A DNA stretch of 17,340 bases from an uncultured Thiopseudomonas sp. (GCA_964625365.1 CAZVDA010000019.1:1-17340); one strand, 5' to 3'. Positions 6,585 through 17,206 are shown, numbered from the stretch's first letter. The notes: generated by a model not told the origin, from the sequence alone. A program made the numbers and translations.

Positions 6585-6753
6585 GGTTTGGCAAAAATCC
6601 CGATAACAAAAGGGCTTGAAGAAAGGGTCGGAGTATACATTTAAATGGCGGCAAGCCAAAGAAGTGACCCTCCCTTCCTGTATGAGCAGGCTTGCCCTGC
6701 GACTGGTTGTTTATTCTCGCGGGGCAATCCCGCTTGATACAGGGGCGGTACAA

Positions 6754-9700
6754 TTATGGCTTGCTGGCGGGTTTGTCGGCCTGTTTTTGCCGCTCGCGGC
6801 GTTCCTGCTGGCGTATGTGGTTGAGGGTGACTACCAGGGCGGAGCGCAGGAAGCGGTCGGAGCGTTGCTGGTCGCTAATCAGCTGTTCGGAGCGCTCCAG
6901 GATGTCGGGCCAGGGTATGCCCTGTTCGGCAGGCCGGCTGCTGCGAGTGGCGGTGACCAGATCGACCAGCTGGGCAACGATCTTGCCGCCGATATCTCCG
7001 TCGGCACCGCCAATGCTCTGGTTGCGCTGGAAGTTGCGCTTGATTTCGGCCCAGCGTGCCTGCTGGCTGTCGTTCAGGGTGTTGCGCAGCTCGCCCAGCT
7101 TGAGCAGGTTTTCTTCGGCACCCAGCGTCAGCAGCTGGGCTTCGCCGCGGTAGTGGTCGTCCAGCAGTTGCTGCATTTCCTGGTCGTTCATGACGGCGGT
7201 CACCTTTTCCGCCAGTTTGTTCATGTTGCGGTAGGAGCCCTGCAGCTTGAACGGTGGTTCGGTGCGGTAGGCGTCGGCCTGGGCGGCGCTGGCGATGTAT
7301 TGCTGGTTGATGCGCCACAGCACTTCGCGCACGGTCAGCAGGCGCTGCAGGACGGCTTCGATTTCGCGCAGTTCGGCGGCGCTGTAGTCGTGGCTGAGGG
7401 CGTTGCCGGACACTTCGTGGCCACGGGCCTTACTGACCAGCAGGTGCAGGTCGTTGAGGTCGCGGTTGGCCAGCGGGGCCAGTACCGGGTTGCTGGTGAG
7501 GCTGTTTTCAATGTAGCTGAGCTTGAAGGTTTCTTCCTGGCCGCCCAGCACGTCGCCGAGGTTATAAATGTCGGCACGGTTGGCCAGCATGTCGGGAATT
7601 TTGAACACTTCTCCGGACTCGGTATAGGGGTTGCCGGACATCACCAGGCAGAATTTTTTGCCGCGCAGGTCGTAGGTTTTGGACTGGCCCTGCCAGATAC
7701 CTTCCATGCGGCGGGTACCGTCGGCCAGCGAGATGAATTTTTGCAGAAATTCGGGGTGGGTGTGCTGGATGTCATCGACATAGAGCATGACGTTGTTGCC
7801 CATTTCCAGCGCCAGGTTGAGTTTTTCCAGTTCGCGGCGGGCGGCGCTGTCGGGTGCGCGGGCGGGGTCGATGCTGCGTACTTCGTGCCCCAGCGAGGGG
7901 CCGTCGATTTTCATGAACACCAGCCCCAGCCGGTGGGCGACATATTCCATCAGGGTGGTTTTGCCGTAACCGGGGGGCGAAATCATCATCAGCATGCCCA
8001 TCAGGTCGCTACGCTTGTTGTTGCCGGCGGTACCCATCTGTTTGGCCAGATTGTCGCCAATCAGCGGCAGATACACCTGGTCGATCAGCTGGTTGCGGAC
8101 AAAGCTGGTCATGGGTTTGGCCTTGAAGCTATCCAGCTGCAACTGCTGGCGCTGTTCGCTGGTGATGCGCTGGCGCAAGGCCTGATAGGCCTGCAGGCCG
8201 GGCTGGTAATGCCGCTGGTGCCACAGGGCATTGCTGGAAAAACCGTCAACCGACAGCAGCAGTTCGCCATCCTGGATGCGCGGGTGCTGGCTGAGCAGGC
8301 CGGTGACGCGGGTGTGCAGCTGCATCGGCACGATCTGGCGTGGCAGGGCAGGGTCCAGCAGCAACAGGGCGGCGGCTTCCAGCGCATAGGGGGCGTTGGC
8401 GTGCTGTTCCGGCTGGCTGGCCAGCGCATTGAGCCAGTGCAGGGCTAGCTCCAGCCGCTGGTTGAGCGCCAGTGCCGGGTTGCCCAGCGAGGCGTGCAGG
8501 CTATGCCAGCTGCCGTCGGCTTCCAGGGTGGCCTGCAGCAACTGGGTCAGCTGTTCGGCGTGACTGGAGAAGTGGAAACTGTGGGTGTCGTAGGCCAGCT
8601 CGTCGGCCAGGTAGCGGGCGGCTTCGTGGCTGAGGGTGTCCAGCGGGGTATCGGCGTGACAGGTGAAGGGCGTCAGGTGTGCCTGTTCGGCAAACCGGCC
8701 CAGCACCGCGGCGATATCGCGTACCAGTGCCTGGCCGGCGAGCCGGCTGCCCATGACCCGCTGCAGCATGCGGGCGCTGGTGGCACGTACCGGCCAGTGT
8801 GCGGCGTCATCGTTGTCGCCTTGCTGGTTCCAGAACAGTACGGCCAGCGCCCGGGCGCTGGCATCGTGGGCCAGTACGCCGGCCACTTCGCGCAGCGGCA
8901 GCAACGCTTGCAGAATCAGGGCGGCGTCATGGTCGTGAATGCCCCGTTCATAGCCGTCACGGTAGCGGGGGGCGGCAAAGTTGCGGACGGCACGCACCAG
9001 CTCGTCCGGCTGGTGCATGAGCTCGGCCAGCTGTTGCGAACTGATGGCCGTGTTGTCGCCAGCAGCGGGCTGTTCGGCGCTGTTGATGACCTGCAGTGCC
9101 AGGTATTCGGCCCGGCTGAAACGGTCGGACTCGGAGGCGAAGGTGGCGTCCCAGAAGGTGCGCAGGGCGTCCAGCTCGGGGTGGATGACCGGTTGCATGT
9201 AGTCGGTGCCGACCAGATGGGTATACAGGTGGTCACCGCGTGGCATCAGGGTCAGGTCCAGCGGCTGGGTGTTGACCGAGAAACGGTGCCGGCCGAGCCG
9301 GATGATGCTGCCGCCTGCTTCGAACAGGGTGCTGCGGTCGGACTGCAGGCGCAGCGCCTGGTCCTGTACCGCCTTCAGGCGGGCGCTGATGTCGTCGGCC
9401 TTGACGCTGTCCTGCAGGGCTCGCAGGCGGTCGGCCAGATCGTGCAGCTTGAGGATTAGCGCATCGCTGGCAAAAAAGCTGTTGAGGGCGTCACGTTCCT
9501 GCAGCCGTTCGGTGCGCCGGGGCAGACCGTCGAGAATGCGCAGGGCGGCATCGTACAGGGTCTGGGCGCGGCGCTGGCGTTCGTCGAGCAGGGTTTGTTT
9601 GCGGCTTTCAAAGGCTTCCAGCAGGGCTTCGCGCTTGGCCAGAATATCGGTGAGGAACTGTTCGTGCTCGCCATACTGGCTTTCCAGTTCTTCCAGCAGC

Positions 9701-11925
9701 ACCTGTTGGTGGGCCAGCTGTTCGTCACAGCTTTCCGGGTCGCTGGCCAGGGCCAGTGCGCTGGCCATGCCTTGCTCGAACAGGGTGAACTGGGCACCAA
9801 ACTGGGCGCTTTGCTCGGCGCTGCCCAGAGTTTTGCGTTTTTGGTCGGCGCGGGCGCGGCTCTGGTTGAGCTGGGCATAGATTTCGGAAATACCTTCGAC
9901 AATGCGGGTGCGCAGGGCAGGGTCGTCAATGCGCAGGGCAGCCATCAGTTCGGACAGGGTATCCAGTTCGCTGGCCATGTCCTGCAATTCGCCGAGTACC
10001 GCGTCCAGTTGCGGGGTGTTTTCGGCGGCGGCGATGGCGGCACCCTGATCTTTCAGGGCGTCGTGGTAGGGCACCAGCGAAGCGTCGTCGGCCAGGAAAT
10101 CGGCGGTCCGGGCGGCCACTTCCTGCTGGGCCTGTTCGAGTTGCTGTTGCAGGTGCTCCAGCGCGGGCTGATCCAGATAACGCAGGTCGCGCAGGCTGAT
10201 CAGGCGGCCACGTTGCTGACTGATGCGCGCCAGTGCCTGGGCAAAGTCCCGTGCAAGGTTCCAGCTGGCGTGGCGGATATCGGTCAGCATTTGTTGCTGG
10301 CGGGCGGTCGCTTCGGCCAGCTGGCGGGCAGTATCGGCCTGGATGCTGGCGACTTTTTCGTACTCGTCCAGCACCGCTTCGCCGCTGGCAATGATGGTGT
10401 CCAGTAGCGGTGCCAGAGCCGGCTCGGGGCCGTTGGCCTCCATCCAGTGGTGATGCTCGGTCAGCCGGCGGGTGGTAGCGATCAGCCGCTCGTAACGCTG
10501 GCTGGAAATTTCGTTGCTGTGGATGTCCTGGGTCAGGCTGAACAGCTCGGAAATGCCGCGTACCAGCTCGGCGTTGCCAATGCGCCCCAGCGGGGTGTCC
10601 CGTTGCGGGGCGCTGGCGGCATAGTCGTCACTGATAAAGGGCGTTTGCCAGATTTGCATCGGATGGGTGCGGGTGGGCTCGCTGGTGTCGTCGTTGAATA
10701 CCGCCATGCGGCCGTCTTCGAGCAGGGCGTAGCCGCTGGCCAGCACCGGGCGCTGCAGGGCCCGTTCGATCAGGTTGTAGGTAAAGAGGGCAAAATTGCC
10801 GCTTTCCGGCTCGCGGAATACATAGAGTACGTCTTCGCCGTTGGGTGAGCGGCGCATGCGGCGAAAGCGCATGCCGGCCATGTCCTGATCAAAGGCGTGC
10901 ACTTCGCCGCTTTCCAGTACATAACCGCCGGGAAAGATGATGCCGTGGTCTTCCGGCAGCTGCCGGCAGGCCAGGCCGATGGCGTCGTTGCGGATAACCT
11001 TGCCGGTCAGGGGGTTGAACACCAGATAGCGCCACTGTTCCTCGCGGTACGGCAGGATTTTCAGCAGAATCAGGCTGCCAACCCTGGCGTATTCGATGCG
11101 GGCATCGCCCAGTGCCTGGCTGGTATCGCTGACTGGCTCGCGCCAGATGCCGAGGCCGTCTTCGGTGTTGTTTTCCACCTTGATGGTCAGGTCGCCGCCA
11201 ACGGCTTCAACAAACAGGCTGTCGAGAATGTTGATGTGGGGGTGGCGGCCCTGGACTTCGTCTTCGCGGCGGGTGGCGGTCCATTCAAAGTCAAAGGCGG
11301 GTGGCGCTGCCAGGTCGCGCTCGCCGCGGTTGTCGATGTAGCGGATGGCGCTGGCATCGGCGGCAACTTGCCAGCGGAATACCCGCATGTCGGTGGCCCG
11401 CTCGCCAATCTGGAAGCCGGCCAGCAGTTTGTTGTCGAGCACGGTCATGTGGGTCAGCCGTGCGCCCTTGTAGTAGGCATAGAGTTCGGTAAAGTCACGC
11501 ACAAAACCGGGGTCGTCGAGAAAGCTGCCGGCCAGCGGCAGCGGCTTGACGTCATAGCCGTTTTCATCGTCTTGCAGCGCGTACAGGGCAAATACATCAT
11601 CGACCCGGGTGGTGGTTTTCAGGCCGATAAAGACGTTATAGCCAAACAGCAGATACCCGCCCACCTGCACGATATCGCGGCCAATGCAGTTGTTTTCGGT
11701 ACGCACGCGAAAGCGTCCCAGCAGCTCGGAGCGGCTGCTGCCAAACTCTTCCAGCCGCAACTGGTTGAGCCGGAGTGCCAGCTCGTGCAGTTGCCGGCCC
11801 TGGCCGTGCAGGCGCTTTTGCAGAACTTCATAGGCACCGCCACGGGCCACGCCTTCATCTACGGAGGTGAGGGACGGCTCTGAATGGCTGGAGTCGGTGG
11901 GGCGTGGATCGGCCATGGACATCAT
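6754..11925 (-). CDS. Giant (1723 aa) uncharacterised multidomain protein with a C-terminal AAA+ (AAA_5/MoxR-like) P-loop ATPase domain, and the last gene of the PspA/flotillin cluster
   Basis: The minus-strand ORF is uninterrupted. The N-terminal region of about 480 aa looks beta-rich. Residues about 480-900 form a long Q/L/A/E/R-rich predicted coiled-coil or helical region. Residues about 1300-1480 carry Walker A ISPPGYGKTT (nt 7954-7977) and Walker B NNVMLYVDDIQH (DD at 7771-7776), then a sensor-like CLVMSGNPY segment. The last 250 aa or so are a helical tail with a basic C-terminus. Codon usage matches its neighbours. The start is uncertain (MMSMADP...), with no clear SD. Confidence 0.8.
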   Translation of the reverse strand: MMSMADPRPTDSSHSEPSLTSVDEGVARGGAYEVLQKRLHGQGRQLHELALRLNQLRLEEFGSSRSELLGRFRVRTENNCIGRDIVQVGGYLLFGYNVFIGLKTTTRVDDVFALYALQDDENGYDVKPLPLAGSFLDDPGFVRDFTELYAYYKGARLTHMTVLDNKLLAGFQIGERATDMRVFRWQVAADASAIRYIDNRGERDLAAPPAFDFEWTATRREDEVQGRHPHINILDSLFVEAVGGDLTIKVENNTEDGLGIWREPVSDTSQALGDARIEYARVGSLILLKILPYREEQWRYLVFNPLTGKVIRNDAIGLACRQLPEDHGIIFPGGYVLESGEVHAFDQDMAGMRFRRMRRSPNGEDVLYVFREPESGNFALFTYNLIERALQRPVLASGYALLEDGRMAVFNDDTSEPTRTHPMQIWQTPFISDDYAASAPQRDTPLGRIGNAELVRGISELFSLTQDIHSNEISSQRYERLIATTRRLTEHHHWMEANGPEPALAPLLDTIIASGEAVLDEYEKVASIQADTARQLAEATARQQQMLTDIRHASWNLARDFAQALARISQQRGRLISLRDLRYLDQPALEHLQQQLEQAQQEVAARTADFLADDASLVPYHDALKDQGAAIAAAENTPQLDAVLGELQDMASELDTLSELMAALRIDDPALRTRIVEGISEIYAQLNQSRARADQKRKTLGSAEQSAQFGAQFTLFEQGMASALALASDPESCDEQLAHQQVLLEELESQYGEHEQFLTDILAKREALLEAFESRKQTLLDERQRRAQTLYDAALRILDGLPRRTERLQERDALNSFFASDALILKLHDLADRLRALQDSVKADDISARLKAVQDQALRLQSDRSTLFEAGGSIIRLGRHRFSVNTQPLDLTLMPRGDHLYTHLVGTDYMQPVIHPELDALRTFWDATFASESDRFSRAEYLALQVINSAEQPAAGDNTAISSQQLAELMHQPDELVRAVRNFAAPRYRDGYERGIHDHDAALILQALLPLREVAGVLAHDASARALAVLFWNQQGDNDDAAHWPVRATSARMLQRVMGSRLAGQALVRDIAAVLGRFAEQAHLTPFTCHADTPLDTLSHEAARYLADELAYDTHSFHFSSHAEQLTQLLQATLEADGSWHSLHASLGNPALALNQRLELALHWLNALASQPEQHANAPYALEAAALLLLDPALPRQIVPMQLHTRVTGLLSQHPRIQDGELLLSVDGFSSNALWHQRHYQPGLQAYQALRQRITSEQRQQLQLDSFKAKPMTSFVRNQLIDQVYLPLIGDNLAKQMGTAGNNKRSDLMGMLMMISPPGYGKTTLMEYVAHRLGLVFMKIDGPSLGHEVRSIDPARAPDSAARRELEKLNLALEMGNNVMLYVDDIQHTHPEFLQKFISLADGTRRMEGIWQGQSKTYDLRGKKFCLVMSGNPYTESGEVFKIPDMLANRADIYNLGDVLGGQEETFKLSYIENSLTSNPVLAPLANRDLNDLHLLVSKARGHEVSGNALSHDYSAAELREIEAVLQRLLTVREVLWRINQQYIASAAQADAYRTEPPFKLQGSYRNMNKLAEKVTAVMNDQEMQQLLDDHYRGEAQLLTLGAEENLLKLGELRNTLNDSQQARWAEIKRNFQRNQSIGGADGDIGGKIVAQLVDLVTATRSSRPAEQGIPWPDILERSEQLISDQQRSDRFLRSALVVTLNHIRQQERRERQKQADKPASKP
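7485..8030 (-). other. AAA+ ATPase domain of the giant protein (approximate extent)
   Basis: GYGKTT is encoded at 7954-7971 on the minus strand and the LYVDD Walker B at about 7770-7785. The spacing and the downstream hhhhSGNP motif resemble MoxR/AAA_5/dynein-like ATPases rather than the Vps4/FtsH classic clade. Confidence 0.6.
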
Positions 11926-11952
11926 CTCGCAAAAGGGGCGGTGAACAGGAAG

Positions 11953-11973
11953 CGCCCGCCGTGCTGGCGGGCG
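11953..11973 (-). other. 8-bp all-GC stem-loop in the 59-nt gap between the flotillin and giant-protein genes. It may be an attenuator or partial terminator.
   Basis: The arm cgcccgcc (11953-11960) pairs with ggcgggcg (11966-11973), with loop gtgct. On the minus strand it is followed by CTTCCTGTTCAC, which is only weakly U-rich. Confidence 0.35.
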
Positions 11974-11984
11974 TTCGATGCAGG

Positions 11985-13994
11985 TCAGGCCTGGCTGGAA
12001 GGGTTGCCGTCGGCCGGGAGGGCGGCCGGTTCGATGGCGGCGCTGTTGGTCTGCTGGGCCTGGGCCAGCATTTCAGCCACTTTGGCACCGCCTCCCAGAC
12101 GTTGCAGTACATCACCCACCAGCGGGCTTTTGCTGGTCAGGCCGTCGAGGAATTTGCCCATCGACAGGCCGCCGGCAAACTTGTCGAAGAAGGCCCCTTC
12201 GCCGCCAACGATATCAATATTGGCGTTGGACAGTGCGGCCGCCATGGTTTGCGCCTGGTCGTGGGCAATAGCCTTGCTGGCGGCAATGCTGGCCATGGCC
12301 TGCTCGAAGGTTTTCTCCAGCTGCATGCGGAACTCTTCGTGGGCGCGGGCAGTGTCGCCGAGCTGGTCGAGGGCGGCAAACTTCTTGACCAGACCCTCGG
12401 CTTCGGCGAGCAGCTTTTCGCGGGTGACGCCGGCTTCGGCCTGACCCACATCCTGGGTGACCTTGGCCTGGGTGCTGCCCACCTGCTGTTCGCCACGGGC
12501 CTGGGCCAGCAGCTTTTCTTCCAGCACCCTGGCTTGTGCCAGGCCCTGTTCCTGCTCGACACGGGCTTGCGCAAGGCCTTCTTTTTCCAGTGCGGCAGCG
12601 CTGACTTCGCGTACTTTGGCGTCGGCCAGACCGGGCGCGGCACGCTCGGCCTGGATGCCTTCGGCCAGGCGCTTCTTGGCTTCGGCCTGCTGGGTGGCTG
12701 CATCCAGTTCGGCCTGCGCCAGTACGGTAATTTTGACCGCCTCGTGACGGGACGCCTCTTCGTCAGCTTCGGCCTGCTTGATTTGCTTGACCAGCGACTC
12801 TTCGGCTTCGGCCTTGGCCTGCAATACCACCACCTGGCGGTCACGGTCGGCGGCAGACACTTCACGCACTTCCTTGATGCGCTCTTCTTCCTGGGCGACG
12901 GTTTTTTCTACCATCACCCGCTCGCGGATGACGTTGGCAATAGTGGCCTTTTCGGTTTCCAGCGCTTTTTCCTTTTCGATGCGCTGCAGCTCGACTTCAC
13001 GTTCGCGGGCGACAATTTCCAGCTCGCGGGCACGGGACACCTTCTCGATTTCGATGGCGACTGCCCGCTGTCGGTTTTGCTGGGCCACTTCAACTTCGCG
13101 CTGGCGGTTTTCCTCGCGCACTTCCACCAGCTCCTGGGTGGTGATGCGGGCCTGTTCGGCTTTTAGGCGCTCTTCTTCCTGTACTTTCAGGGTTTCGGCT
13201 TCCTCGCGGGCGCGGATGCTGGCAATTTCACGGGCCTGGCGGGCTTCGGCATCGGCCTTCTGGCGCTCCAGCGACAGCATGGCTTCACGGGTTTCTACGT
13301 TTTTCTTGGTGATGGCCAGCTCTTCGTTGCGCGAAATTTCGTTGGTGACAATATTTTGCGCGGCGGTCAGCTCGGTAATCTTGCGGATACCCTCGGCGTC
13401 GAGAATGTTGGCCGGGTCGAGTGCTTCTTTTGGCGTCTGCTCGATGTAGTCGATGGCCACGTCTTCCAGCGCATAACCGTTCAGGTCCTGGCCGATGACT
13501 TCGATGATGCGGTCACGGAACTGCTGGCGGTTTTCAAACAGTTTGACAAACTCGGTCTGCTTGCCCACGGTTTTTAGTGCTTCGGAGAACTTGGCATTGA
13601 ACAGTTCGTTGACCGCATCCTTGTCGGATGCGCGGTCAGCGCCCAGTGATTTGGCTACCTTGAGCACGTCGGCGGCGGTTTCGTTGACCCGCAGGTAAAA
13701 CGCCACGGTGATGTCGGCACGCATGTTGTCCTGACAGATCAGTCCCTCTTTACCGCGGCGGTCAATGTAGAGGGTGAGCAGCGAGATTTTCATGAATTCT
13801 TTTTTGTGGATGACCGGCCAGACCAGGCCGCCGGTAAAGCGCACCTTGGGCGTGCTGCTCAGGTCGTTGATGATCAGCGCGGTCCCTTGCGGTACCTTGA
13901 TGTAGAACGCCTTGAACAGCAACAGGATGGCGATGATGAACAGCAGCAGGACAAAACCTGCGGTCAGCAGCGGGGCCAGGATACCCATGTTCAT
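11985..13994 (-). CDS. Flotillin-family SPFH/band-7 protein (YqiK-like) with an extended Glu/Ala/Arg-rich repeat region
   Basis: The 669-aa product has an N-terminal TM helix MNMGILAPLLTAGFVLLLFIIAILLLF, then an SPFH domain (VRFTGGLVWPVIHKKEFMKISLLTLYIDRRGKEGLICQDNMRADITVAFYLRVNE...). A long EA-rich coiled coil follows, with 11-aa repeats (GLAQARVEQEQ / GLAQARVLEEK / LLAQARGEQQV). The SD is AAGGAAA about 8 nt upstream. Confidence 0.9.
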   Translation of the reverse strand: MNMGILAPLLTAGFVLLLFIIAILLLFKAFYIKVPQGTALIINDLSSTPKVRFTGGLVWPVIHKKEFMKISLLTLYIDRRGKEGLICQDNMRADITVAFYLRVNETAADVLKVAKSLGADRASDKDAVNELFNAKFSEALKTVGKQTEFVKLFENRQQFRDRIIEVIGQDLNGYALEDVAIDYIEQTPKEALDPANILDAEGIRKITELTAAQNIVTNEISRNEELAITKKNVETREAMLSLERQKADAEARQAREIASIRAREEAETLKVQEEERLKAEQARITTQELVEVREENRQREVEVAQQNRQRAVAIEIEKVSRARELEIVAREREVELQRIEKEKALETEKATIANVIRERVMVEKTVAQEEERIKEVREVSAADRDRQVVVLQAKAEAEESLVKQIKQAEADEEASRHEAVKITVLAQAELDAATQQAEAKKRLAEGIQAERAAPGLADAKVREVSAAALEKEGLAQARVEQEQGLAQARVLEEKLLAQARGEQQVGSTQAKVTQDVGQAEAGVTREKLLAEAEGLVKKFAALDQLGDTARAHEEFRMQLEKTFEQAMASIAASKAIAHDQAQTMAAALSNANIDIVGGEGAFFDKFAGGLSMGKFLDGLTSKSPLVGDVLQRLGGGAKVAEMLAQAQQTNSAAIEPAALPADGNPSSQA

Positions 13995-14032: not shown

Positions 14033-14647
14033 TCAGAGGCCACGAAATTCGTGTTCGCTGACCACGCGCCAGGCATCGCTGCCGGGCAGTTGTTCGATCA
14101 GGACAATGCGGCTGCCAAGGGGCAGCTCTTCGCCGCTGGTGCGTACCTGCAGAATCAGCCCTGCACCGCCGTCATCAATGCTGGCATGGCCGTATGCGGC
14201 GGTTGCCGTGCTGCTGCGCACCACGCCACTGCGGCCGGCCAGCACCTTGGGGGCGTGTCCGCCGCTGGCGCGGTGCAGCAGGCGGCGTACGGGGCGCAAC
14301 ACCAGGGCAGTCAGGAAGGTGCCAACGACAAAGGCGGCCACTGCAATCAGGCTGCCCAGCAACAGGGTGCTGAAGCTGCCCGGCATCAGTGGCAGTGCCA
14401 GCAATACCATGAAGTAGCAACATAGCCAGCCCAGCAGGGCCATCAGGCTGAGCACGATGGTCAGCGGTACGCCGCCCAGCCCCAGGCGTGACAGCAGGCC
14501 GGTGGCATCGCCCAGGCTGTCGCCGCCATCGGCGGTATCGCCGGCCAGACCGGTCATCGCAATCAGCCAGTAGGCCACGCTGACGGTCAGCCAGGCGGTG
14601 AACAGGGCGGTGGGGTAGCTGGAAATAATGCTGAGAAACACGTCCAT
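14033..14647 (-). CDS. YqiJ/NfeD-like inner-membrane protein, the usual partner of the flotillin YqiK
   Basis: The track ORF 14033..14701 is trimmed to MDVFLSIISSYPTALF..., preceded by GGAGAG. The N-terminal half is multi-TM. The C-terminal soluble domain (VLAGRSGVVRSST...ILQVRTSGEELPLGSRIVLIEQLPGSDAWRV) looks like an NfeD-like OB-fold. It sits immediately upstream of the flotillin gene, as in the E. coli yqiJK pair. Confidence 0.72.
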   Translation of the reverse strand: MDVFLSIISSYPTALFTAWLTVSVAYWLIAMTGLAGDTADGGDSLGDATGLLSRLGLGGVPLTIVLSLMALLGWLCCYFMVLLALPLMPGSFSTLLLGSLIAVAAFVVGTFLTALVLRPVRRLLHRASGGHAPKVLAGRSGVVRSSTATAAYGHASIDDGGAGLILQVRTSGEELPLGSRIVLIEQLPGSDAWRVVSEHEFRGL

Positions 14648-14708
14648 TATGGGCTCTCCGGCACGGCAGTGTGTCATGGACCGGCCTGGAAGCCGGCCCA
14701 TGGCTGGG

Positions 14709-15419
14709 TCAGTTGTCGGCCGCTTGTTGGCTGTTCTGGCGGGCCTTGAGGCGGGCCAGCACCGAGTCGGCGCTTTGGGTTTCGGTCAGGATGCCGGCCT
14801 GGCGCAAGCGCTGGTTGAGGCTGTCGCCGTTGCTGTCGCGGGCTATTTCGCTGGCCGCTTCCAGCCGTGCGCTGCGCTCGGCCTGCTGCTGCTTGATGCG
14901 CTCCAGCGAGTCCAGTGCGGTTTGCAGGCGCGAGTCGGTGCCCTGATAGCGCTCGGCAACTGCGGTTTGTGCACGCTGCACGCTCTCGGTCGCCTTGACT
15001 GTATCAGCCTGCTGCTTGAGGCGGCGGATATGGCTTTCGGCCTGGTTGATGGCGTCGCGCAGCTGGCTGGCGCTGTTGCCCAACTGGTCGGCCAGCTGTT
15101 GTTCTTCGCCCAGCTGGGCTTCCAGTGTGGCGATACGGCCGGCGACTTCCAGCGCCAGGGTTTCGTCGCCCTGCTCTAGTGCCCGGGTGGCGTAGCCTTC
15201 GTTGTTGGCAATCTGGCTGCGGGTTTCGGCCAACCGGGCCTGCGCCAGTTTTTCTTTGGCCATGAGGCCGGCCAGGGCCTCCCTGCTTTTGCGCAGGTCG
15301 TCGTCGGCATCACGGATTTCCTGGTCCAGAATGCGCAGGGCCTGGCTGTCAACCAGTGCTTCGCCGGCTTCGTGGGCACCGCCGCGCAAGGCGGTCAGCA
15401 ATTTGCTCCATACACTCAT
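14709..15419 (-). CDS. PspA/IM30-family protein (YjfJ-like; ESCRT-III superfamily)
   Basis: The track ORF 14709..15704 is trimmed to Met96 (MSVWSKLLTALRGGAHEAGEALVDSQALRILDQEIRDA...), which has AGGAGA 6 nt upstream. It is alignable with E. coli YjfJ (MGILKSLFTLGKSFISQAEESIEETQGVRMLEQHIRDAKAEL...QFEQQMEVVKATEAMQRAQQAV...QTRQAERQARLDAAAQL...VLARLQRQQ). No pspBC or pspF is present nearby. Confidence 0.85.
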   Translation of the reverse strand: MSVWSKLLTALRGGAHEAGEALVDSQALRILDQEIRDADDDLRKSREALAGLMAKEKLAQARLAETRSQIANNEGYATRALEQGDETLALEVAGRIATLEAQLGEEQQLADQLGNSASQLRDAINQAESHIRRLKQQADTVKATESVQRAQTAVAERYQGTDSRLQTALDSLERIKQQQAERSARLEAASEIARDSNGDSLNQRLRQAGILTETQSADSVLARLKARQNSQQAADN

Positions 15420-15438: not shown

Positions 15439-15885
15439 TCAAGGGGTTGGCTGGTTGAGACTGCTTTCAAAGGCTTCGGTAATTCGCACCACGTTGTCAG
15501 CCAGGGTGTCGATTTCGTAGAGGACGCTGTCAAGGATGGAGCCGGCGCTGAGTGCGCCGAACATGATGTAGGCGTCCTGCTGGTCTGCGGTGGTTTCAAT
15601 GCCGACCGAGGACAGCGGGAACAGTTTCTGCATTCGCAAAATCTGTTCGTTGAACTGCACCGGATCCTGCACCATGCTGACCGGCCACAGGTAGGCTTCA
15701 ACAATGATCTGGCCGCCCGCTACTGCCAGAAACAGGGGCAGTTCGCCATAGTCATGCATGCGAATCAGCAGGCTGGGCTCGGTGCCTTCGATCAGCTCCA
15801 GGGTTGCCCGCCCGTCGCGGGCCAGTGACGTACCGTTCAGTGCTTCAAGCAGTGTTTCTGTGGTCCATGTGGTCGTGCGGGTCAT
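15439..15885 (-). CDS. Small conserved hypothetical protein, YjfI/DUF2170-like by context. This is the first gene of the cluster. A possible N-terminal extension reaches 16065.
   Basis: A 148-aa form starts at MTRTTTWTTETLLEALNG..., with a strong GGAGG SD 5-6 nt upstream (rc of 15891-15895). The frame stays open a further 60 codons to an ATG at 16065 (MEQKTSAYYQRLYRQRLREQGLIKKELW...). That ATG sits 7 nt after a predicted -10 box, so a leaderless 208-aa form is possible. It is followed 19 nt later by the pspA-like gene. Confidence 0.6.
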   Translation of the reverse strand: MTRTTTWTTETLLEALNGTSLARDGRATLELIEGTEPSLLIRMHDYGELPLFLAVAGGQIIVEAYLWPVSMVQDPVQFNEQILRMQKLFPLSSVGIETTADQQDAYIMFGALSAGSILDSVLYEIDTLADNVVRITEAFESSLNQPTP

Positions 15886-16065
15886 GCTGTCCTCCATGAG
15901 GCGAGGGGTAAGGTGATCCTGTCCGGGCAGGCGCATCTGTTGCTCCAGTTCGGCAAGCTGTGCGCTGTATTCGGGAAGAATCCAGAGTTCTTTTTTAATC
16001 AGGCCCTGTTCGCGCAGACGCTGGCGATAAAGGCGCTGGTAGTAGGCTGAGGTTTTTTGTTCCAT

Positions 16066-16117
16066 GACGTGAATTTAAACTATCACATGTGATTTTTGCA
16101 ATATCTTACATGTGACG
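16066..16117 (-). promoter_or_regulatory. Sigma70-like promoter of the YjfI-PspA-YqiJ-flotillin-giant ATPase operon with an embedded palindromic operator
   Basis: The minus strand reads TTGCAA (16101-16096), a 17-nt spacer AAATCACATGTGATAGT, TTAAAT (16078-16073), then TCACGTC and ATG(16065). The spacer contains the perfect palindrome ATCACATGTGAT (16082-16093). A second near-copy TTACATGTGAC lies at 16106-16116, 23 bp centre to centre. An extra ATCACA half-site lies at 16121-16126. Confidence 0.4.
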
Positions 16118-16165
16118 TTGATCACAGATTTGTATTCAGGTGTGAAAACAATTTTTCAGGCTGCC

Positions 16166-16549: not shown

Positions 16550-17206
16550 ATGTTTACAGGAATCATCGAAGCGGTTGGCAGCATTCGCAGCCTCACGCCC
16601 AAAGGCGGTGACGTGCGGGTGCAGGTGGCCACCGGCAAGCTCGATTTAAGCGATGTAAAGCTGGGTGACAGCATTGCCGTTAACGGCATTTGCCTGACGG
16701 CGGTGGAGCTGCCCGGAGACGGCTTTTGCGCCGATGTCAGCCGCGAGACCCTGGCGCGTACCGGCTTTGTCAATCTGCGTGAAGGTAGCGCGGTCAATCT
16801 GGAAAAAGCCCTGTTGCCCACCACCCGTCTGGGCGGGCATCTGGTTAGCGGTCATGTTGATGGCGTGGGCGAAGTGCTCAGCCGCAGCGACAGCGCCCGT
16901 GCGGTGGTTTTCAAAATCCGTGCGCCAAAAGAGCTGGCACGTTATATCGCCATGAAAGGCTCGATCACCGTCGATGGCACCAGTTTGACCGTAAATGCCG
17001 TCAATGGCAGCGAATTTGAGTTAACTATCGTGCCGCATACCTTGCAGGAAACCATCATGGCCAGCTATCAGGCTGGCACGCTGGTGAACCTGGAAATCGA
17101 TCTGATCGCCCGCTACCTGGAGCGCCTGCTGCAGGGCGACCAGGCCGCCGAGCCGCAGGGCGGCATTACCGAAGCATTTTTGGCCGAACACGGCTTTCTG
17201 CGTTAA
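16550..17206 (+). CDS. ribE: Riboflavin synthase (alpha subunit)
   Basis: [15 protein letters not shown]...[14 protein letters not shown]...GHVDGVGEV...[13 protein letters not shown] shows the two lumazine-binding repeats and the MFTGII start typical of riboflavin synthase (RibE; ribC in older E. coli nomenclature). The SD is GGAGA 6 nt upstream. The stop is TAA at 17204-17206. Confidence 0.92.

Follow-up and report, generated by a model that had tools for sequence, protein, structure and literature searches.

A giant BacE-type protein with a MoxR/AAA_5-type AAA+ module is genetically linked to flotillin in eight bacterial phyla

The best described relative of the gene studied here lies in the bac operon of Pseudomonas aeruginosa, whose six genes, bacA to bacF, are co-transcribed as judged by reverse transcription PCR (RT-PCR) (PMC10948618). 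In that work, Wallart et al. (2024) gave PA14_16190 the name bacE and reported that BacE was 8.9-fold more abundant in a bacA transposon mutant, with BacB to BacF increased 6-13-fold (PMC10948618). The operon affects biofilm formation, rhamnolipid production, and virulence. Ravi et al. (2024) described the same operon and found abbreviated operons without PspA to be more widespread (PMC11237479). Expression of PA3728-PA3732 was jointly induced by infection with two virulent phages (PMC12041424), and the five products were jointly increased in an unrelated proteome, where they were still listed as "ORFs of unknown function" in October 2026 (PMC13637947). Expression of PA3731 rises on osmotic shock (PMC2587700), and PA3728 is among the mutated genes of cystic fibrosis isolates in three studies (PMC8190622). 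In P. aeruginosa, bacE and its operon partners are co-regulated under stresses of the envelope type. Here, we report on a giant gene of the bacE type in 17,340 nucleotides (nt) of DNA from an uncultured Thiopseudomonas sp. (GCA_964625365.1, CAZVDA010000019.1:1-17340), a stretch referred to as the window. The giant gene is the last of an operon that runs bacA, PspA/IM30, NfeD/YqiJ-like, flotillin, and giant gene, all on the same strand.

The window's giant protein is colinear with its P. aeruginosa counterpart, P0085 (58% identity, 1677 amino acids, aa), in a locus with the order DUF2170, PspA, 213 aa, 688 aa, giant (1746 aa), and PLDc_2. The published RT-PCR primer "PA14_16190/20_F" encodes LIKVMDR, which is found in the C-terminus of P0085. 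Based on this primer and the layout of the P. aeruginosa locus, PA14_16190 (PA3728) is the giant gene; the same two observations ruled out a small open reading frame (ORF) between the flotillin and giant genes as the bearer of that name. Judged by sequence, the window's giant gene is almost certainly orthologous to P. aeruginosa bacE (PA3728/PA14_16190). It adds one more orthologue to a family that is catalogued, briefly described, and functionally uncharacterised, and the window locus does not reveal a new kind of system. An initial annotation of this DNA had recognised no characterised family with such an architecture. This was right in that the family is biochemically uncharacterised and mislabelled, and wrong in that Pfam catalogues its DUF3686, DUF7902, and AAA_5 regions and the orthologue has been named bacE. 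In our literature search, no work on the giant protein itself came up, whether biochemical or genetic, and nothing relevant joined SPFH with MoxR.

Our analysis establishes two properties of the giant protein. It is a soluble protein with one MoxR/AAA_5-type AAA+ module in which all catalytic residues are conserved, and its gene is linked across phyla to those of a flotillin and an NfeD/YqiJ-like partner, and facultatively to those of PspA and BacA. No transmembrane segment was predicted in the giant protein, which is probably cytoplasmic for that reason. The 1723-aa ORF of the initial annotation is present and begins with ATG, with further ATG triplets at codons 2 and 4. Because Met4 is the aligned start in all homologues and a 99%-identical database protein, P0001, has 1720 aa, translation may begin at Met4 (nt 11916; 1720 aa). 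Residue numbers below refer to the 1723-aa form, and the coordinates of all features are collected in Table 1.

Assignment of the module to the AAA_5 type rests on profile matches and on a structural model. Pfam AAA_5 matched aa 1312-1439 with 27.4 bits in the whole protein and 30.9 bits for the domain alone, against a cut-off of 22, and was the top family in 30 of 30 orthologous ATPase cores, where it covered profile positions 2-128 of 139. PF00004 matched over profile positions 2-38 of 131 only, the P-loop part, AAA_3 barely registered, and the Pfam scan listed neither MIT nor Vps4_C for the giant protein. These results agree with the initial annotation, which had called the module MoxR/AAA_5-like and not Vps4-like. 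AlphaFold2 (AF2) models were built for aa 1-510, from 58 sequences, and for aa 881-1723, with mean predicted local distance difference test (pLDDT) scores of 86.5 and 83.5, respectively. The second model has both the alpha/beta core (about aa 1320 to 1480) and the helical lid (to about aa 1640) of an AAA+ fold, and a predicted beta-hairpin sits between the post-Walker B helix and the sensor-1 strand. MoxR proteins carry the pattern …ATQNP…LPEAQLDRF after Walker B, and the corresponding part of the giant protein (…SGNPYTESGEVFKIPDMLANRA) appears similar to it. The AAA_5 match, the predicted hairpin, and this pattern together point to the MoxR/dynein-type ATPases that have a pre-sensor-1 insert. 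At the helix-2 insert position, the model shows a conserved 14-residue loop (aa 1346-1359, GHEVRSIDPARAPD) and not a hairpin.

Conservation of the catalytic residues was assessed in an alignment of 195 full-length homologues with 30-67% identity to the query (median 39%). The most conserved stretch of the giant protein is aa 1270-1480. K1322 and T1323 of Walker A, D1384 and D1385 of Walker B (62 residues separate K1322 from D1384), and N1432 of sensor 1 are invariant, while R1566 is retained in 99.5% of homologues and R1450 in at least 97%. The initial annotation had placed both Walker motifs correctly to within one codon, Walker A ending at 7980 and not at 7977, and the loss of Walker residues in orthologues, which it had named as an argument against catalysis, occurred in none of the 195. 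The second acidic residue of Walker B was always Asp and never Glu; this Asp-Asp pair is unusual and could mean slow hydrolysis. The candidacy of R1450 as an arginine finger comes from what we take to be an analogy with the LDRF motif of MoxR proteins; the AF2 model is unreliable around this residue (pLDDT <50 for aa 1436-1455). Taken together, the conserved motifs suggest that the giant protein is probably an active MoxR-like AAA+ ATPase.

The module forms an isolated clade. Searches of 1.84 billion representative proteins gave 899 matches at E <= 1e-3 and 380 at E <= 1e-30, and the best 150 were all members of the same family, whole or fragmentary, in which the ATPase lies around residue 1200-1300. 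This position was shared by all full-length matches, and distant full-length representatives have the same layout. A PDB sequence search with the whole protein returned only P-loop-level matches (p97/Cdc48, RuvB, Rix7; best E 0.03), as did a profile of 30 ATPase-core sequences (best E 2.8e-4 over about 34 residues). NCBIfam has no family for the giant protein, its RuvB matches being sub-threshold. Across sequence, profile, and structure searches, no characterised enzyme family matched the whole protein with confidence; a match of this kind was what the initial annotation had named as refuting its claim of an undescribed protein. Biochemically the protein is uncharacterised, but it is not undescribed.

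The BacE family comprises more than 6,400 database clusters at E <= 1e-5, with the closest named relatives of the window locus in Comamonadaceae such as Lampropedia and Corticibacter. Much as the initial annotation had anticipated for routine pipelines, by far the most common database names are "DNA repair ATPase", "AAA family ATPase", and "hypothetical protein". The first of these implies an ATPase of the SMC/Rad50/RecN kind with a coiled coil. It is encouraged by names (the description of PF12458 and the database entries), by the weak sub-threshold RuvB P-loop matches, and by the position of recJ three genes 3' in P. aeruginosa. A single C-terminal AAA+ module with Walker motifs less than 70 residues apart is not the split ABC-type head of such proteins, and no SMC_N, AAA_23, or Rad50 match was found in Pfam or NCBIfam. 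The RuvB matches span about 45 residues around the P-loop and reach 18 bits against a cut-off of 282. The conserved neighbours encode membrane proteins and not repair enzymes, and in our literature search DUF3686 was mentioned nowhere, and nothing joined flotillin with "DNA repair ATPase". A role in DNA repair is very improbable, and the label is unsupported beyond the name.

Ahead of the module lie about 1300 residues in three regions. The AF2 model of aa 1-510 substantiates the beta-rich N-terminus noted in the initial annotation, with about 28 strands in an all-beta, divergent propeller-like domain that is preceded by helices and followed by more of them beyond aa 433. We found no recognisable WD40 or other named repeats when this domain was tested as a WD40-type propeller, and no strong structural similarity to solved propellers. 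The second region, which the initial annotation had predicted to be coiled coil, spans about 365 aa and is indeed rich in Q, L, and A (A 16%, L 15%, Q 10%, D 9%, R 8.5%, E 8%), poor in P and G (4.6% together), and gave a strong heptad signal with a simple home-made score. Its part from aa 650 to 870 is well conserved among close homologues (mean top-residue frequency 0.82-0.87). DUF7902, which lies within it, was also present in the distant homologues scanned, bar one short representative of 897 aa. For the third region, a helical domain with small beta elements, no recognisable relative was found among PDB structures.

These long arms, together with the Walker B motif, bear on an alternative in which the giant protein is a nucleotide-gated scaffold or switch, a long tether from flotillin microdomains to a propeller-bound client in the cytoplasm or membrane, with assembly controlled by ATP binding and slow hydrolysis in the manner of STAND (signal transduction ATPases with numerous domains) proteins. 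The invariant Asp-Asp pair, the very long and well conserved helical regions, and the lack of an evident aromatic pore-loop motif in loop GHEVRSIDPARAPD are consistent with it, as are weak Pfam nSTAND matches of the NTPase core in 26 of 30 orthologues (best E 0.0036). Typical STAND proteins have the opposite domain order, however, since here the propeller is N-terminal and the NTPase C-terminal, and AAA_5 outscores every STAND family. The conserved candidate arginine finger and sensor 2 suggest catalysis between the subunits of a ring. We regard a switch of this kind as unlikely.

To place the giant gene in its genomic context, 80 proteobacterial-type loci from species-representative genomes were surveyed. 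The order BacA, PspA, NfeD-like, flotillin, and giant was found in most loci with enough upstream sequence, while NfeD-like, flotillin, and giant alone were found in a minority (Aquimonas, a Gemmatimonadota metagenome-assembled genome (MAG), and some Lysobacterales). Elsewhere, the genes 5' of the giant gene encode proteins of 241 and 691 aa in Novipirellula (Planctomycetota), 226 and 698 aa in Prosthecobacter (Verrucomicrobiota), and 702 aa in a Sumerlaeia MAG. Among the Bacteroidota, they encode PspA with proteins of 213 and 722 aa in Hymenobacter, a YqiJ_N protein with a 728-aa protein and two extra genes in Dysgonomonas, and a 242-aa protein, a short Band_7 protein, and a 708-aa protein in Aureispira. 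The proteins of about 700 aa from these six loci are 39-46% identical to the window flotillin over more than 600 residues. Counterparts recognised by annotation or size are a "flotillin family protein" in Streptomyces (Actinomycetota) and proteins of 198 and 652 aa in Deinococcus (Deinococcota).

The flotillin gene stands immediately 5' of the giant gene, or two genes 5' in Dysgonomonas, and in a few loci other membrane proteins are inserted between the two. Overall, the unit of NfeD/YqiJ-like protein, flotillin, and giant ATPase was found in eight phyla, often without PspA, and the flotillin-linked loci examined in these phyla encode no ATPase other than that of the giant family. The initial annotation had tied the giant gene to the flotillin and PspA genes alike; the linkage is there, with that to PspA being facultative. 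These comparisons favour flotillin over PspA as the constant partner of the giant ATPase.

The same survey bears on whether the giant protein could be a PspA-specific disassembly ATPase, a counterpart of Vps4 for which flotillin is only a recruiting platform. PspA is encoded in the operon here, in most proteobacterial loci, and in Hymenobacter among the Bacteroidota, and PspA contexts have been linked with AAA+ ATPases (PMC11237479). A 2025 review stated that a Vps4-like ATPase is apparently absent in bacteria and that PspA polymerisation must be regulated otherwise (PMC7619361). However, within the locus neighbourhoods seen, the flotillin-giant pair has no nearby PspA gene in Planctomycetota, Verrucomicrobiota, Sumerlaeia, Dysgonomonas, Aureispira, Streptomyces, Deinococcus, Aquimonas, and Gemmatimonadota. 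The giant protein has no MIT domain, and its module is not of the classical Vps4 AAA type. Dedication to PspA alone has, in our estimate, a small probability.

Several loci of the survey carry accessory genes near the giant gene. In Pseudomonas, a single-HKD gene of the phospholipase D (PLD) family lies 3' of it (loci L063, L070, and L088, about 11450-13950). In Lysobacteraceae (L062:11551-13280 and L077:11491-13336), the stop codon of the giant gene overlaps the start codon of a gene for a 215-245-aa protein without a Pfam family, and TelA (toxic anion resistance) comes next. A small conserved ORF of 79-86 aa lies between the flotillin and giant genes in L007 (5847-6107), L070 (5892-6131), and eight other loci, all from Pseudomonas or Lysobacter and making up part of the loci of these genera. 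It shows the pattern M..RDYLEM.F.S.QCF.NDGRLD…IAERDG.ID.NE.RVL…, a repeat that looks TerB-like, has no Pfam match, and is absent from the window and from P. aeruginosa. The window has none of these accessory genes: no PLD/HKD gene, no 215-aa protein with TelA, and no 79-86-aa ORF. In Hymenobacter (L084:11094-13801), a GmrSD_N (DUF262-type) gene and an AAA_23/AAA_15 ATPase gene follow the giant gene; these are of the defence-island type and are probably unrelated neighbours. ATPase cores 79-80% identical to that of the window occurred in L039, a MAG labelled Chitinophaga pinensis, and in L048, L064, and L066 from Gemmatimonadota or Longimicrobium MAGs. The full proteobacterial gene order of L039, at Lysobacteraceae-like identities, suggests mis-binning, and the Gemmatimonadota cases could reflect mis-binning or recent transfer.

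PLD-family single-HKD proteins can be nucleases. With the PLD-family neighbour in Pseudomonas as effector, the giant NTPase could be imagined to sense infection in an anti-phage or other conflict system, and large NTPases with repeat sensors are common in such systems. Induction of PA3728-PA3732 by two virulent phages (PMC12041424) would fit, yet phage induction is also typical of classical phage-shock, that is, envelope-stress, operons. PADLOC returned nothing for the giant protein, flotillin, NfeD-like protein, or BacA, and only a weak match for the PspA ORF, a coiled-coil protein (LmuB, E = 3.8e-4). Homologues of the giant family were found in none of 50,697 phage records and in 13 of 72,556 plasmid records, mostly megaplasmids or chromids. 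This near-absence, together with a locus order that is conserved across many genera and not patchy, and the lack of the PLD gene in the window, argues against a defence system, which we consider improbable. The PspA-specific, defence, and DNA-repair alternatives all rank below a reading in which the giant protein remodels flotillin.

In that remodelling model, the C-terminal module would assemble into a ring, by analogy with other AAA+ proteins that have an arginine finger, with N-terminal arms of about 1300 residues that point outwards. Through their propeller and helical parts, the arms would bind a cytoplasmic assembly of flotillin (SPFH), built at the inner membrane with the NfeD/YqiJ-like partner, and ATP hydrolysis would assemble, disassemble, or reshape the flotillin scaffold. 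Where the BacA-PspA pair has been added, a further substrate of the ATPase might be the ESCRT-III-like polymer that PspA forms at these membrane sites, and the whole operon would form an envelope-stress and membrane-maintenance module. A ring-forming MoxR-type remodeller of flotillin, and in proteobacteria also of PspA, is our best overall explanation, and we give it an even chance. Our judgement is just as evenly balanced on whether the giant protein acts on or with a flotillin assembly, while the choice of a remodeller over a scaffold or switch is tentative. The motor or regulator of flotillin/PspA assemblies proposed in the initial annotation is likewise an inference. A more specific version, in which BacE-type proteins are ATP-driven remodellers of membrane scaffolds, six-armed MoxR-derived rings with propeller tips that open, disassemble, or recycle flotillin cages and PspA polymers, seems doubtful in its full detail. 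If it were true, BacE would be, in at least eight phyla, the bacterial counterpart in function of Vps4 or NSF, acting on flotillin and PspA.

Binding to flotillin or PspA, oligomerisation, and ATP hydrolysis are all inferred in the remodelling model, and several observations weigh against it. The Asp-Asp Walker B might mean slow hydrolysis and a switch rather than a motor. Inspection of the sequence of loop GHEVRSIDPARAPD revealed no aromatic pore-loop motif, and structural searches with the propeller and with the helical regions returned nothing informative. MoxR ATPases usually have a VWA/MIDAS protein as partner, and no VWA domain was found in any operon gene of the window or of the other loci examined. 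In addition, flotillin is missing from the 8 kb around an Aureibacter homologue, and in one Lysobacter MAG locus the place of flotillin 5' of the giant gene is taken by a two-HKD PLD protein.

The spacer between the flotillin and giant genes contains the GC hairpin that the initial annotation had reported ahead of the giant gene, and it recurs in related loci. For 75 related loci placed by tblastn coordinates, we counted as a hairpin any perfect stem of 7 bp or more, including 5 or more G-C pairs, that lay no further than 70 nt from the flotillin stop, and used equally long windows inside the giant gene as controls. Hairpins were found in 33 of 75 loci compared to 2 of 75 control windows, and this recurrence suggests a conserved structural element within the operon; the stem sequences vary between lineages. 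The hairpin is likely a partial terminator or transcript-stabilising element. It would probably lower expression of the giant gene relative to flotillin; the initial annotation had proposed a low stoichiometry of the giant protein, an idea to which the comparative data lend some support. RT-PCR in P. aeruginosa shows read-through from flotillin into bacE (PMC10948618), so that the hairpin, where present, is not a complete terminator.

At the other end of the gene, conservation collapses beyond aa 1650. The last 30 aa of the window protein carry a charge of about +4 to +5, consistent with the basic tail of the initial annotation, but this is not a family feature: among 126 homologues the mean charge was -0.3, and 36% were positive.

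Table 1. Features of the giant gene and its operon in the window (coordinates in nt, residues of the 1723-aa form).
Feature	Coordinates	Strand	Details
Giant bacE-type ATPase gene	6754..11925	-	ATG start, 1723 aa; stop codon 6754-6756
Variable C-terminal tail, aa 1650-1723	6757..6978	-	Mildly basic in the window protein only
Helical lid / C-terminal subdomain, aa 1481-1640	7006..7485	-	Helical in AF2
Candidate sensor 2, R1566 in LQGSYRNMNK	7228..7230	-	99.5% conserved; role by motif analogy
AAA+ alpha/beta core, AAA_5 (MoxR/dynein) type, aa 1300-1480	7486..8028	-	Most conserved block of the protein
Candidate arginine finger, R1450 in PDMLANRAD	7576..7578	-	Motif analogy; conservation >=97%
Sensor-1 motif SGNP (N1432), aa 1430-1433	7627..7638	-	N1432 100% conserved
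Predicted pre-sensor-1 beta-hairpin, aa 1406-1419	7669..7710	-	DSSP on AF2: strands aa 1406-1411 and 1414-1419 (model residues 526-531, 534-539)
Walker B MLYVDDIQH, aa 1380-1388	7762..7788	-	D1384 and D1385 at nt 7771-7776; Asp-Asp, not the usual Asp-Glu
Walker A SPPGYGKTT, aa 1316-1324	7954..7980	-	K1322 at nt 7960-7962
Helical domain with small beta elements, aa 881-1260	8146..9285	-	AF2, pLDDT mostly >90
A/L/Q-rich helical, coiled-coil-like region, aa 505-870	9316..10413	-	Heptad score and composition
Pfam DUF7902, aa 616-698, within the helical region	9832..10080	-	E = 3.2e-24
Pfam DUF3686 (PF12458, 'ATPase involved in DNA repair'), aa 46-493	10447..11790	-	E = 4.4e-193, profile positions 2-448 of 448
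All-beta propeller-like domain, aa 67-427	10645..11727	-	About 28 strands in AF2 model, enough for seven four-stranded blades
N-terminal helices, aa 19-61, ahead of the beta domain	11743..11871	-	AF2 model; one long helix aa 31-61
GC hairpin in the 59-nt flotillin-giant spacer	11953..11973	-	8 G-C pairs, 5-nt loop; then CTTCCTGTTC
Flotillin-like gene (bacD/PA3729 type)	11985..13994	-	669 aa; one N-terminal transmembrane helix, aa 9-27
NfeD/YqiJ-like membrane protein gene (bacC/PA3730 type)	14033..14701	-	<=222 aa; about three hydrophobic segments, soluble C-terminal domain
PspA/IM30 gene (bacB/PA3731 type)	14709..15419	-	236 aa from ATG after GGAG; Pfam PspA_IM30, E = 9.5e-50
bacA (DUF2170 / CesT-Tir-like), first operon gene	15439..16065	-	208 aa; NCBIfam 'biofilm formation regulator BacA' 309.5 bits against cut-off 300; Pfam DUF2170

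The other products of the window operon were examined as well. Most of the flotillin chain is predicted to lie in the cytoplasm. The protein has no Pfam match even at E <= 10, the NCBIfam FloT model stays far sub-threshold, and its counterparts in other phyla likewise have no precomputed Pfam family. Current Band_7 and flotillin models seem to overlook this subtype of flotillin. The NfeD/YqiJ-like protein corresponds to the YqiJ/YuaF-type protein with three transmembrane segments of PMC11237479, and its Dysgonomonas counterpart has a weak Pfam YqiJ_N match; the start of the gene is uncertain, with candidate ATG codons at 14701, 14677, and 14647. The listed PspA ORF, with a TTG at 15704, is over-extended into bacA, and the likely start is the ATG at 15419. 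Downstream of the giant gene (6660-6753), valS follows after 94 nt, and there is no bacF.

Upstream of bacA, a perfect CRP/Vfr-type palindrome, TGTGATCAACGTCACA, occupies 16111-16126 (-) and is centred about 53 nt 5' of the bacA ATG (16065), with a second palindrome, ATCACATGTGAT, at 16082-16093 (-). A sigma-54 pattern (-24/-12) 5' of bacA gave 15 matches compared to 15.1 expected, none of them suitably placed. The operon may be regulated differently from its P. aeruginosa counterpart. Divergent from bacA lies an FMN riboswitch (Rfam RF00050, 16275-16442 (+); 101 bits against a gathering score of 66), and 3' of it a 218-aa ORF (16550..17206 (+)) that is presumably riboflavin-related.

As the obvious candidate for an ATP-dependent factor in the assembly and disassembly of bacterial flotillin microdomains and PspA/ESCRT-III-like polymers, the giant protein is a good experimental target. 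Knowledge of its function would open a way into the dynamics of flotillin and PspA and allow thousands of annotations to be corrected.

Among known AAA+ systems, the giant protein shares with the MoxR family (CbbQ, NorQ, RavA; Pfam AAA_5/AAA_3) and midasin an AAA_5 best match and a predicted pre-sensor-1 hairpin, and CbbQ, NorQ, and midasin were among the best structural matches. A second comparison is with FtsH, a membrane-anchored classical AAA protease that is enclosed by a periplasmic HflK/C cage. There, too, an SPFH-family scaffold is coupled, genetically and functionally, to an AAA+ ATPase at the inner membrane, a coupling for which the present locus shows gene linkage. The giant ATPase differs in being soluble, in having no protease domain, and in belonging to another AAA+ clade, and the bulk of its flotillin is on the cytoplasmic side by prediction. 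Vps4/ESCRT-III would be a possible functional analogue, as an AAA+ ATPase is here encoded with PspA of the ESCRT-III superfamily; unlike Vps4, the giant protein has neither MIT nor Vps4_C, falls outside the classical AAA clade, and is linked to PspA only facultatively.

The nearest system remains BacE of the P. aeruginosa bacABCDEF cluster, which has the same Pfam architecture and the same place after bacA, pspA-like bacB, bacC, and flotillin-like bacD. Compared to P. aeruginosa BacE, the window protein has a shorter, basic tail. The P. aeruginosa cluster includes bacF (PLD/HKD), in whose stead valS follows in the window, and P. aeruginosa bacA is preceded by a proposed sigma-54 site whereas the window has CRP-type palindromes. 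Ravi et al. (PMC11237479) described the same family and operon, gave the ATPase one sentence, and assigned it to no clade; the wider, abbreviated flotillin-YqiJ-ATPase operons that they reported are reproduced here. Our analysis adds to that account the AAA_5/MoxR-type assignment, the invariant Asp-Asp Walker B, a confidently modelled helical domain (aa 881-1260) that has no PDB relative, a tail that is not conserved, and a hairpin that recurs after flotillin.

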